64,000 nt of DNA from a virus (lineage: Duplodnaviria > Caudoviricetes): IMG/VR virus record IMGVR_UViG_3300017909_004140, positions 32,001 to 96,000 of that record; one strand, given 5' to 3'. Position 1 is the stretch's first letter, and each line of letters opens with the position of its first letter. The notes under the pieces were generated by a model that was not told the DNA's origin, ran no database searches, and was given only the letters and a program-made list of their open reading frames with translations. Shown here piece after piece: positions 8,149-21,599 of this stretch. Made by a program: the position numbers and the translations under genes.

Positions 8149-9131
8149 GTTTTAGGAGTTTTATTATTAACAATCTCTAAGGGGAGATGGTATTTAAAAG
8201 GTTTAGTTCCTTTTTTTCTAATCCAGTCTGCAGTTAGCTTAACTGCTTCTTCTACTGTTGTTGTTGTTTTGTACCCTAATAACTTTCTTGCTTTATCAGA
8301 AGAACAAGTAGCATGCTTTACTTCTTGTGGTCTTCCTTGTGTATAGTATATGGGATCTTGATTTATTCCAGTCTCGTTAGCGCATAAGTTTGCTAATTCA
8401 GCTATAGTAATTTCTTCTTCATCAGGCCCAATATTAATAGTTTCATATACTATATTTTCCTGGGTTCCCATTTTTTCTAAGCACTGAACACAGTCAGAAA
8501 CATAAGAAAAACATCTAGTTTGATTACCGTCGCCATATATAATTGAAGGCTTTCCTTGTAGATTTCTATTTAACATAATACTCATTACATTTCTAAAAGG
8601 GTCATCGTACTTTTGGTACTCTCCTACTATGTTATGAGGCACTGCGATGTTCCATTCTATATTATGCACCTTACTTAAAACTTTTAGTACTTCTTCTGCT
8701 GCTACTTTAGCAATTCCGTAAGGATCGACTGGAGCAGGGCTCATATCTTCGTTAAAAGGAGGTTTTTGCTCTCCATAACGAGCCATAGAGGTACAAAAAA
8801 CAATTCTTTTTACTCCTGCAGCAATGGCAGCTGAAAAAGTAGTAACTGATGCTTCAAAAATATTACGGGTAATAAATGCAGGAGAAAATACTGATAGTCC
8901 TTCATGCGCTGTAGCAGCACAGTGATAAACTAGATCACAGCCTTTCATTGCTTTTTTCATGGCTTCAAAATCACAACAGTCGCACAAAGTAAAGTCAACA
9001 AAAGAAGGCACGTTATCCTCTTCTCCTCCAATAAAAGTATCATTTCCTGCTACATCAAAACCAAGTTCATGCATTCTGACAGCGATATGATGTCCTAAAA
9101 ATCCTCCGACTCCGGTTATAAATACCTTCAT
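8127..9131 (-). CDS. NAD-dependent nucleotide-sugar epimerase/dehydratase
   Basis: TGVGGFLG Rossmann motif; YGIAK catalytic YxxxK. Confidence 0.92.
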   Translation of the reverse strand: MKVFITGVGGFLGHHIAVRMHELGFDVAGNDTFIGGEEDNVPSFVDFTLCDCCDFEAMKKAMKGCDLVYHCAATAHEGLSVFSPAFITRNIFEASVTTFSAAIAAGVKRIVFCTSMARYGEQKPPFNEDMSPAPVDPYGIAKVAAEEVLKVLSKVHNIEWNIAVPHNIVGEYQKYDDPFRNVMSIMLNRNLQGKPSIIYGDGNQTRCFSYVSDCVQCLEKMGTQENIVYETINIGPDEEEITIAELANLCANETGINQDPIYYTQGRPQEVKHATCSSDKARKLLGYKTTTTVEEAVKLTADWIRKKGTKPFKYHLPLEIVNNKTPKTWTEKRF

Positions 9132-10102
9132 AATAGTTCCTTCACTATATTTGCTTTTTTAATTATTTCTTCTTCTGTTTCTTCGGGAGACACATTGAGA
9201 TAAAACACATTTTCACTCATTTTTTTAGCAGTAGGACTAACGTTTTGACACTCAAATAAAGGTTGCATAGACATTGGCTTAAAAGAATGCCTAGCTGTTA
9301 CTCCTTTTTCGTTTAAGACCCCTACTAGTTCATTAGCTTTAGGGTGTTTGATATCATATACCCAAACTACTTTTCTATTATTAGGCATATGATATTTTTC
9401 TGGGATGATACTATTGTATATCTGAGAAATTCTATGTCTTCTTAATAAATTATCTTTTGCATTTTTCAAAGATTCAAGAGCTAGGTTAGCTTGTGAGTCT
9501 GTGCATCTATAATTAAATCCTATTTGTTCGTGATAATAGTTATGTTTGTTACCGAAACTCATTGACTTCATATCTTGGACTGTATCAATAAAATCTTTGT
9601 CATCAGAGGTTATTACTCCTCCCTCTTCCGCATGAATAATTTTATTTCTATACAAAGAAAAACAACCAATATCAAAAGAGCCGATCTGCTTATTTAATAT
9701 ACTTGCTCCTTGTGCTTCGCAAGCGTCTTCAATAACTCTTAATTTGTATTTCTCAGCAATATTCATAACCTTATCCATGTCTACAACTCTTCCATAAACA
9801 TGAGTTATCATCAATACTTTAGTGTTTTCATCTATAGCTTGTTCTAGTTTATTTAAATCAATTAATAAATTATTATCACAATCAATAAACTTAGGTGTTA
9901 GTCTTGCATAGTATACAGCTAATCCGCTAGCATACATAGTAAATTCAGGCACAATAATATTACTATTTTTGGGTAATTTAAGTGCTTCTATTGATACATG
10001 AAGGGCTGCCGTACCTGTATTAACTGCACAAGCATATTTAGTACCTACGAAATTAGCATATTCTTTTTCTAGTTTTTGATATGGAAACATTACCAGTCCC
10101 AC
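9128..10102 (-). CDS. DegT/DnrJ PLP sugar aminotransferase (perosamine-synthase-like)
   Basis: NTGTAALH, IEDACEAQG, FSLYRNKII..EGG with the catalytic Lys retained, GFNYR. Confidence 0.88.
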   Translation of the reverse strand: MGLVMFPYQKLEKEYANFVGTKYACAVNTGTAALHVSIEALKLPKNSNIIVPEFTMYASGLAVYYARLTPKFIDCDNNLLIDLNKLEQAIDENTKVLMITHVYGRVVDMDKVMNIAEKYKLRVIEDACEAQGASILNKQIGSFDIGCFSLYRNKIIHAEEGGVITSDDKDFIDTVQDMKSMSFGNKHNYYHEQIGFNYRCTDSQANLALESLKNAKDNLLRRHRISQIYNSIIPEKYHMPNNRKVVWVYDIKHPKANELVGVLNEKGVTARHSFKPMSMQPLFECQNVSPTAKKMSENVFYLNVSPEETEEEIIKKANIVKELL

Positions 10103-19494: not shown

Positions 19495-19522
19495 AAAAAA
19501 AGGGAGGTGAAATCACCTCCCT
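19495..19522 (-). terminator. Intrinsic terminator
   Basis: AGGGAGGTGA-AA-TCACCTCCCT stem followed by a T-run on the minus strand. Confidence 0.8.
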
Positions 19523-19546
19523 CTCATAGAGTATCTTATGTGTTAA

Positions 19547-19870: not shown

Positions 19871-19927
19871 TATGTAACCTTTCATCTCATAAAAATACAC
19901 TTAATAGTTTTCTATTAAGTGTTAATA

Positions 19928-20386
19928 GTTGTGGCCCGTTCTGTTGCTAGGTGGTGCCATACCCCATTAGACTATGCCGCTAAGGGCATATCCATAGGTG
20001 CAAAATTATCGTTTGCAATTGTTTTATTCTTGCGGTTAAGGTCGCTTGCGCACCTGTCTCTCGATTTGATTTTTATTGAGTCTGTCGATCCTATTTCGCC
20101 CCCATCATAAAAGCACGCGTATCAAACAAAATTGCTCATAGTTTTCTTCAAATCCTGTTTCATAATCTGCAAGAGGAGCTCCATTACTTCCAGAAACCCA
20201 GAGTCTTCTGAAATATCCGTCATAGGAATCTTCTACTTGCTGAGGAGTTACTTTACGAAGGTCTCCCTTAACCATATAGTAAACTCTACATTTTTCTTTG
20301 AATGTTACCATGCGTTTATGGTGGAGGCGCCGGGTACCGCCCCCGGGTCCAGTCCGCCTATTCTATCTCTTCTCAAACGAGACAAT
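19928..20386 (-). ncRNA. ssrA: Permuted two-piece tmRNA: acceptor piece ~20386-20319, intervening segment 20318-20104, coding piece 20103-~19928
   Basis: GGACCCGGGGGCGGTACCCGGCGCCTCCACCA precedes GGGGGCGAAATAGGATCGAC. Acceptor stem GGGGGCG/CGCCTCC has G3:U70. Tag frame 20016-19972 reads ANDNFAPMDMPLAA*. Outer ends are approximate. Confidence 0.93.
20105..20311 (-). CDS. 68-aa hypothetical protein inside the tmRNA intervening segment
   Basis: ATG 7 nt after the CCA end; TGA ends 1 nt before the mature 5' G. Confidence 0.65.
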   Translation of the reverse strand: MVTFKEKCRVYYMVKGDLRKVTPQQVEDSYDGYFRRLWVSGSNGAPLADYETGFEENYEQFCLIRVLL

Positions 20387-20737
20387 TTATTCCTTGAAAA
20401 ATAGCTCTAGTTCGTCTAATATCCAAGTACTAATTTCTAAAGTACCAAATAATATAATTAGCATAAAAGGCACTATTATAAATAAAAATATAGTTAGCAC
20501 TATTTTTTGCCAGCGATTACATTTTTCTACATAAAAATGAGCAAATAGTCTTAATCCGGCTTTAATTTTTTCTTTTAACCAATCTCCGAAGAAATTACGA
20601 AAAAGTCGCATTACTATTAATATAGGAGAAGTTATAACATCCCATACAAGTAATACTACGTCTACTATTAGATCAATAATATGATCTATTGTAAACCAGT
20701 TTTTTATTCTGTTTTTGAAATTATTTTTGTAAACCAA
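20387..20737 (-). CDS. Hypothetical membrane protein
   Basis: Two hydrophobic segments. Confidence 0.6.
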   Translation of the reverse strand: MVYKNNFKNRIKNWFTIDHIIDLIVDVVLLVWDVITSPILIVMRLFRNFFGDWLKEKIKAGLRLFAHFYVEKCNRWQKIVLTIFLFIIVPFMLIILFGTLEISTWILDELELFFKE

Positions 20738-20996: not shown

Positions 20997-21197
20997 CTAT
21001 AACGACATTTCTTCTTTTTTACGTTCTAGTCTTTTAATTCTAGCTACCGCTTCTTTGTGTTTGATACGTCTTTTTTCGCCTTTAGTAATATGGTATCTTT
21101 TTTCTTTTAGCTTTTTAAAAATACCTTCTGTGTTTAATTTTCTACTAAGAATTTTGTAGGCTTTTCCCACATCATTATTTCGTACTTTAATATACAT
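20997..21197 (-). CDS. rpsU: Ribosomal protein bS21
   Basis: IKVRNNDVGKAYKILSRKLNTEGIFKKLKEKRYH.TKGEKRR. Confidence 0.88.
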   Translation of the reverse strand: MYIKVRNNDVGKAYKILSRKLNTEGIFKKLKEKRYHITKGEKRRIKHKEAVARIKRLERKKEEMSL

Positions 21198-21448: not shown

Positions 21449-21599
21449 ATTCGCTCTTGCCTATATGATAAGTTTTTGTTATTATATATTTAATGAGTTT
21501 TCTCTCTTTATTTTTAACTCAAATCTTAAATCATTATAGTATATTGATAACTAGCTGTCAATAACTTTCTTGATTAAAACAAAAAATACGCTTTTATCG

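Follow-up and report, generated by a model that had tools for sequence, protein, structure and literature searches.

A predicted small protein gene in the intervening segment of a permuted phage tmRNA gene

The 64,000-nt stretch of viral DNA analysed here, which we call the window, carries a permuted two-piece tmRNA gene whose intervening segment is filled almost from end to end by a 68-codon open reading frame (ORF). Comparison with related sequences indicates that this ORF is a genuine protein gene under purifying selection. The explanation that best accounts for our observations overall, and to which we assign a probability of about 0.65, is a selected gene lying in the loop of the tmRNA spacer, made together with the tmRNA precursor and with its output tied to tmRNA synthesis. 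A single transcript thereby appears to serve both as the precursor of a stable RNA and as a messenger.

The permuted tmRNA gene and the ORF in its spacer

The virus record to which the window belongs measures 107 kb and is an estimated ~91% complete. On the minus strand, the Rfam models RF01849 (alpha_tmRNA) and RF04321 (tmRNA_permuted) score 123.5 bits (at 19930-20430; cut-off 50) and 104.5 bits (cut-off 47), respectively, and ARAGORN predicts a permuted tmRNA at 19881-20413 with the tag ANDNFAPMDMPLAA. The features of the locus are the following:

19930..20430, minus strand: two-piece tmRNA gene of the permuted alpha type, with the acceptor piece first, then the intervening segment and the coding piece (Rfam and ARAGORN)
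20319..20383, minus strand: acceptor piece, the 3' half of the tRNA-like domain with the T-arm (Rfam alignment)
20104..20318, minus strand: intervening segment of 215 nt, a single long insertion in both Rfam models
20105..20311, minus strand: 68-codon protein gene P0001, 207 nt including the stop, encoding a protein of 8.05 kDa and pI 5.3
20309..20320, minus strand: 5' strand of the closing helix, CAUAAACGCAUG, which holds the start codon
20106..20117, minus strand: 3' strand of the closing helix, CGUGCUUUUAUG, coding for the C-terminal VLL and extending 2 nt into the stop
19930..20103, minus strand: coding piece, with G1 at 20103, starting GGGGGCGAAAUAGGAUCGAC
20016-19972, minus strand: tag frame ANDNFAPMDMPLAA of the ...LAA type, with its stop present

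The acceptor piece, located upstream of the coding piece, ends with the 3' strand CGCCUCC, the discriminator A and an encoded CCA at 20321-20319 (CGCCUCC-ACCA, 20329-20319); the acceptor 5' strand GGGGGCG occupies 20103-20097, with G3 opposite U. Removal of the intervening segment is required, since both the CCA 3' end and the mature 5' G must be freed. The Rfam scan of the window returned the tmRNA and two tRNAs only, with no group I intron at the site.

Read along the minus strand, the segment consists of the leader UAAACGC (20318-20312), the AUG (20311-20309), the remainder of the frame down to the stop codon UGA (20107-20105) and a single U (20104) that precedes G1 (20103). The AUG is placed 7 nt past the CCA, the stop 1 nt before G1, and the ORF occupies 96% of the segment; the coordinates and counts given in an earlier sequence-only reading of this DNA are exact. 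A frame of at least 68 codons arose in 37 of 20,000 shuffles of the segment.

That reading had also proposed that the loop holds a protein gene, and had suggested looking for homologues inside ssrA; here the relatives provide strong support. A protein search yielded eight close relatives of P0001, and pattern scans of viral and metagenome contigs yielded 28 loci. At least 15 other tmRNA spacers, viral or metagenomic, hold a conserved version of the ORF. Indeed, at all loci that are at least 54% identical to the query and include both gene ends, the ORF sits between the CCA and GGGGGCG, and sequence reading revealed the same nested layout in L026 and L027 (51% identity), while L033 and L127 joined the nested set through a scan centred on the tmRNA. 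A tBLASTn search with P0001 gave no match in 50,697 deposited phage records. Likewise, tBLASTn with P0040 (a free-standing member of the family) and two other spacer proteins, as well as blastn with the tmRNA region, found nothing relevant in the same records.

The pattern of divergence among the relatives is that of a protein-coding sequence. Pairwise dN/dS values (NG86, Nei-Gojobori) range from 0.05 to 0.25, pointing to purifying selection; variable sites in the close group are distributed 11/7/39 over the three codon positions, and length differences consist of in-frame indels. AlphaFold2, run on a 21-row alignment, predicts a small protein of four helices (pLDDT 89.7). Gene callers mostly place the start at M13, but the twelve residues before M13 are conserved family-wide, with the consensus x-F/L-K-E-x-x-R-x-F/Y-W/Y, and we therefore take the AUG at 20311 as the start. 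This may serve as a warning for annotation: pipelines that mask RNA genes miss such ORFs or choose the wrong start codon.

The tmRNAs that surround the nested genes score 76-120 bits with Rfam, and their tag frames are complete in all cases; the arrangement is found again and again in uncultured marine phages. The tags of the window and of L015, L001, L004, L002, L026 and L033 keep an ANDN start and an AA or VA end throughout, and their middle parts diverge strongly (APMDMPLAA, VVEDYALAA, VAEDYRQAA) between phages with 88-96% identity in their nested proteins. More distant nested loci have the tags ASEELRLAA and, with a shortened coding piece, APLAAVA.

Closing helix, transcription unit and a possible coupling to tmRNA processing

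The 215-nt segment forms an enlarged apical hairpin loop, closed by a 12-bp helix that is stacked on the acceptor stem. Its strands, CAUAAACGCAUG and CGUGCUUUUAUG, are paired at all but one of the 12 positions, the exception being a C/U mismatch, and the pairing takes in the AUG as well as two stop-codon bases. The helix spans C75 of the CCA to position -3 before G1 and is parted from the acceptor stem by a 2x2 internal loop; the gene uses its strands for the first codon and the last four sense codons. In the minimum-free-energy fold of the precursor, both the acceptor stem and this helix form (z = -3.4).

Sequence comparison indicates that the helix is supported by covariation. In 92 phage spacers aligned in fixed register, pairs 4-12 are canonical in 88-99%, with four to seven pair types each. 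Compensatory changes are also found within the family, where pair 8 changes from G-C to A-U and pair 7 from the C/U mismatch to C-G, A-U or U-A; in L004, ...ACACAUG pairs with CGUGUGU..., and in L027, ...AUACACG pairs with CGUGUAU.... Thus, the earlier proposal that the segment ends extend the acceptor helix and bury the AUG finds support in both covariation and folding.

No GGAGG-like motif is present 5' of the AUG at 20311, and the absence of a Shine-Dalgarno (SD) sequence, likewise noted before, holds for the subgroup of the window. Other members differ in this respect: L004, L027 and L033 have GGAG or AGGA at the edge of the helix, and several other families of spacer genes have AAGGAG within the 5' strand, and in those the SD, rather than the AUG, would therefore be sequestered.

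At the junction of spacer and coding piece, ...UUAUGAU followed by GGGGGCGAAAUAG is conserved, and each reading frame therefore has a fixed end. Three types occur. In the first, to which the window belongs, the frame closes with UGA at -4 to -2 (...RVLL and stop). In the second, found in L004, L027, L033 and the MDEV family described below, it closes with UAG at +11 to +13 within the mature tmRNA (...FMMGAK and stop), and in the third it closes at about +30 or further. A cut by RNase P would strip the stop codon from types 2 and 3. In one nested variant (L026:3001-3240), the UAG is missing from the 5' acceptor region and the frame consequently runs on, spanning 79 aa through the 5' region of the mature tmRNA (...FMRGAKQDRLADNRKAERQVRKRP).

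The apparent transcription unit comprises, in order, an 83-aa ORF, bS21, a 96-aa ORF, a 116-aa ORF and the tmRNA, with the following elements:

21533..21561, minus strand: promoter candidate TTGACA-17-TATAAT, a match to the sigma-70 consensus (pattern scan)
20997..21197, minus strand: bS21, a phage-encoded ribosomal protein (Pfam Ribosomal_S21, E = 2e-13)
19897..19922, minus strand: hairpin and U-run just after the tmRNA 3' end (pattern scan)
19498-19525: stronger terminator-like site (pattern scan)

The promoter candidate at 21561-21533 is the sole strong one upstream of the unit, and there is no strong match inside it, so the nested gene is probably transcribed only within the tmRNA precursor. 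As an observation in its own right, bS21 and the tmRNA share one apparent unit under a perfect sigma-70 consensus, in a 107-kb genome in which no SmpB was found.

From this arrangement we infer an order of translation and processing. Transcription would start from the promoter-like site and carry the gene in the tmRNA precursor. A ribosome could engage the AUG before transcription is complete, the pairing partner of the AUG lying ~190 nt downstream, and the helix would form once its 3' strand has been made and the ribosome has left. RNase P would then cut before G1 and 3' trimming would expose the CCA, releasing, besides the two pieces of the tmRNA, a panhandle RNA of 215 nt in which the AUG is paired and the stop is 1 nt from the 3' end. 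Because processing would leave the messenger in this form, the output of the protein would be tied to tmRNA synthesis in time and amount. Whether the messenger is near-leaderless would depend on the cut site in the 3' trailer of the acceptor piece. That the AUG is paired in the folded precursor and has no SD counts against this reading, as does the choice of M13 by most gene callers.

A bolder version, which we regard as unlikely, is that end-processing of the phage tmRNA doubles as the step that makes the mRNA, the excised spacer being a working messenger for a ribosome-rescue protein, with feedback through non-stop mRNA. In the variants ending in ...FMMGAK, the RNase P cut would turn the messenger into a non-stop mRNA and hence into a substrate for the tmRNA of the same transcript, so that tmRNA maturation and the amount of protein made would be coupled by an inherent feedback. 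With a ribosome-binding site and a stop codon that form part of a processing helix, the locus offers a natural system in which competition between translation and RNA processing could be studied on a single RNA.

The protein family and its placement at phage tmRNA genes

P0001 belongs to an unnamed family present on more than 1000 viral contigs (538 and 556 in two motif scans). A profile search against 1.84 billion representatives returned 131 clusters at E <= 1e-3, all of 44-125 aa, and a cluster look-up gave marine metagenomes as the source throughout. P0001 matches the family consensus KEAxRLFWxVKGHL...SYFKRLW...EGFEEAW with its invariant K15, G16, Y33, R36, W38 and F54. The genome of the window holds a single copy of the family, the nested one.

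Searches for an identity gave no family name. Pfam reported no family for P0001 at E <= 1, and neither did Pfam, PHROGs, NCBIfam and PADLOC name P0001 or its relatives. Four specific candidates were rejected: S23p, with no Pfam match in P0001 and none in 100 relatives; SmpB, with no match to PF01668 and an all-helical model as opposed to a beta-barrel; a homing endonuclease in a tmRNA group I intron, with no ribozyme and no LAGLIDADG, GIY-YIG or HNH domain (Pfam, NCBIfam); and uL13, the best match in a profile search of PDB sequences, whose E value of 0.54 we treated as noise. The model of P0001 had no Foldseek match in PDB or BFVD at E <= 0.001 and no usable match in the ESM Atlas, and a wide structure comparison with VIA-align gave a best Z of 3.8, a value that says nothing for a helical model this small.

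Most members of the family are free-standing. The linkage samples were selected by motif, and among the matches listed ~33 of 43 sampled clusters have no tmRNA within 1.5-2.5 kb, while about a fifth have a phage tmRNA a short way downstream in the same orientation. In the first half of the family, a permuted tmRNA follows the gene on its own strand at 27 of the 80 listed loci, or in 5 of 18 clusters when the loci are grouped at 90% identity; in the other half this is so for 4-5 of 25 clusters. Seen from the tmRNA, the family occurs at 8 of 120 listed phage loci (nested in 2, and upstream in the same orientation in 6) and at none of 120 listed bacterial loci. There are also contigs of 65-96 kb with the family and no tmRNA, although these are only 18-27% complete. 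Five free-standing loci (L010, L012, L013, L014 and L028) had no consistent annotated neighbour.

Where the family and a tmRNA occur together, four architectures can be distinguished. In the first, the family gene is followed by a ~70-aa gene and the tmRNA (L297:1513-2315, L351:1492-2378 and, in tmRNA orientation, L071 at about 8738-9500); the middle gene, shared by all three, is 32% identical between L297 and L351. In the second, a DUF3307 membrane protein lies between family gene and tmRNA (L276). In the third, the family gene abuts the tmRNA directly and the spacer of that tmRNA holds a different ORF (L072). The fourth is the nested arrangement, whose members fall in two distant parts of the family tree; that tree (130 rows x 74 columns) is poorly resolved, and we therefore used it solely for placing the nested members in these two spots.

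Some further details of these neighbourhoods were recorded. The ~70-aa gene has the motif ...DL..LE......K.....KTKNG........LLR.MNA.R..., and the spacer of the L351 tmRNA itself carries a 43-aa ORF. The DUF3307 (phrog_2470) membrane protein recurs beside the family gene (L013:1510-1878, L014:2636-3004, L276:1796-2179), flanking it on one side in L013 and L014 and standing between it and the tmRNA in L276. In one branch, many of the free-standing members have a C-terminal extension, ...VA(V/I)LGYD or ...LGGH(Y/F)D, before the stop (P0022, P0048, P0066, P0071, P0074, P0093, P0097 and P0109; loci L370, L392-L397 and L412), and in L028 a neighbouring 93-aa protein ends ...TLGYDK.

The sequence-only reading had suggested that the protein could be a cofactor of tmRNA or the ribosome. 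In its strongest form, this would make it a protein dedicated to the tmRNA pathway of the phage, one that might bind the tmRNA or the host SmpB, or handle tagged proteins, with nesting enforcing joint production. The circumstantial part of the idea holds up, as the family is found repeatedly inside or just upstream of phage tmRNA genes: there are at least four tmRNA-linked architectures with the tmRNA always downstream and on the same strand, nesting occurs in two distant branches, the phage encodes no SmpB (PF01668 is absent across the 107-kb genome), and bS21 belongs to the unit of the tmRNA. The more specific claim fits less well with the data, as most family members are not beside a tmRNA, 112 of 120 listed phage tmRNA loci lack the family, and ~20 unrelated groups of genes, small membrane proteins included, fill the same loop elsewhere. 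Furthermore, the protein is acidic (pI 5.3), unlike typical RNA binders, and the strong variation of the tags among phages with proteins 88-96% identical makes it unlikely that the protein recognises the variable tag portion. We therefore consider a dedicated partnership possible but rather doubtful.

Adjacency could also reflect the residence of both genes in one hypervariable, single-strand early region and not a shared function. To us, nesting looks like an extreme form of the operon linkage between the family and phage tmRNA, and we lean towards co-expression with a phage translation module (bS21, tmRNA) over a proven physical partnership. Since its members turn up repeatedly at phage tmRNA genes, the family nevertheless offers a concrete candidate for a phage-encoded factor that acts on ribosome rescue.

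Spacers across phages and bacteria, and known systems

The intervening segment has been regarded as a short spacer that is normally discarded. This description fits bacteria, where the conserved 5' motif of the tmRNA retrieved 104 alphaproteobacterial genomes with spacers of 3-82 nt, none being longer than 82 nt among the matches listed, but it fails for phages. Scanning viral contigs for the same motif and pooling the matches with the family loci gave 117 unique phage spacers of 9-499 nt among the matches listed. Among the 53 spacers of at least 100 nt, 44 have an ORF that covers at least 70% of their length, compared with 4.5 +/- 1.9 in shuffled sequences and 4 on the antisense strand; the unbiased fraction is somewhat lower, since ~13 of the 53 came in through the P0001 family protein itself. 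At 150 nt and above, 31 of 32 spacers are filled by an ORF. Judged by length, the only property measured, bacterial spacers of ~30 nt are about the right size for a closing hairpin alone, and in the phage versions a gene is carried in the apical loop of that hairpin. A segment treated as disposable is a routinely used coding site in marine phages.

The spacer ORFs sort into ~20 unrelated groups of small genes, and two further recurrent groups, a 44-aa membrane peptide and a 35-aa MDEV peptide, have dN/dS values of 0.06-0.34. One comprises single-pass membrane peptides of 39-59 aa (...YI.WSICAD..L..G...; L128:4125-4259, L074, L087, L096, L136 and L057), with dN/dS of 0.07-0.24 (0.07-0.15 in four close members) and AAGGAG in the 5' strand of the helix. 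The other, the MDEV group of 35-36 aa (MDEVILWEFRK..VE.ICINNYS..HARL.MGAK; L048:5450-5557, L045, L114, L118, L119 and L141), has its final residues and UAG stop within the mature tmRNA and dN/dS of 0.06-0.34. Two spacers of ~310 nt contain two genes (L017:3001-3320 and L019:1734-2118, the latter with flanking genes 87-100% identical to those of the window). In these, another conserved ORF (MT.LD..KLQKAYVKVYG..WR.YFTK.HWCVYD...) comes after the family gene; its ATG overlaps the stop of the first gene (ATGA, or ATGACTAA), and it has no stop before G1 and reads into the mature tmRNA. No relationship was detectable between the second ORF of L019 and the ~70-aa gene of the upstream module.

Such a permissive loop, with its ~20 ORF groups and two ORFs each in L017 and L019, might suggest that P0001 is a selfish or neutral insertion tolerated by the phage, in the manner of a homing-endonuclease gene in a tmRNA intron or of the S23p ORF of Coxiella, which lies in an intervening sequence and is apparently untranslated in vivo (PMC4990558). 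We find this very unlikely, given the strong purifying selection on the amino-acid sequence, the 131 clusters of mostly ordinary free-standing genes, the single copy in the genome and the lack of a nuclease or mobility domain in the protein and of a group I intron or other Rfam element at the site. That the frame is a mere by-product of RNA-structure constraint or chance can be dismissed as highly improbable: its ends are indeed constrained by the helix, it has no SD and 68 codons are rare yet possible in shuffled sequence, but third-position variation dominates (11/7/39, dN/dS 0.05-0.25), free-standing homologues share its motifs outside any tmRNA, indels stay in frame and the predicted structure is confident.

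We found no description of a protein gene in a tmRNA intervening sequence in the literature searched, which included PMC9004378 and PMC11915505. Two-piece permuted tmRNAs have been described in marine myophages, namely the OM43 phage Melnitz and the pelagimyophages HTVC008M and Mosig (PMC9004378). The window resembles these phages in its alpha-type permuted ssrA, the lack of a phage SmpB, the ANDN...LAA tag and an early-looking operon; it differs in that its segment is filled by a 68-codon gene, whereas that paper makes no mention of a spacer ORF. The tmRNA of HTVC008M spans 312 nt and is therefore compact. Permuted tmRNA genes are also known from Caulobacter and other Alphaproteobacteria (Keiler 2000; Sharkady and Williams 2004, both as cited in PMC9004378). 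They share with the window the gene order, the acceptor stem, the encoded CCA and a hairpin-forming segment, and for both, removal of the segment by tRNA-processing enzymes is inferred by homology; the sampled bacterial segments of 3-82 nt, however, are shorter than the 215 nt of the window. In the 2025 tmRNA database, intervening sequences hold only a tRNA-Ala gene and a repetitive element (PMC11915505).

The nearest precedents are the S23p ORF of Coxiella and the homing-endonuclease genes of tmRNA introns, and P0001 belongs to neither. Homing-endonuclease genes are found in group I introns of tmRNA genes (PMC11915505), and like P0001 they are protein genes nested in a part of the tmRNA gene that is missing from the mature RNA; in the window, that part is removed by end-processing of a permuted gene and not by splicing. 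In Coxiella burnetii, an intervening sequence of the 23S rRNA carries the S23p ORF, whose product is apparently not made in vivo (PMC4990558). As in the window, the ORF lies within a stem-closed segment that is excised from the precursor of a stable RNA, but the host RNA, the processing enzyme and the Pfam family are different, and the gene described here is under strong selection at the protein level.
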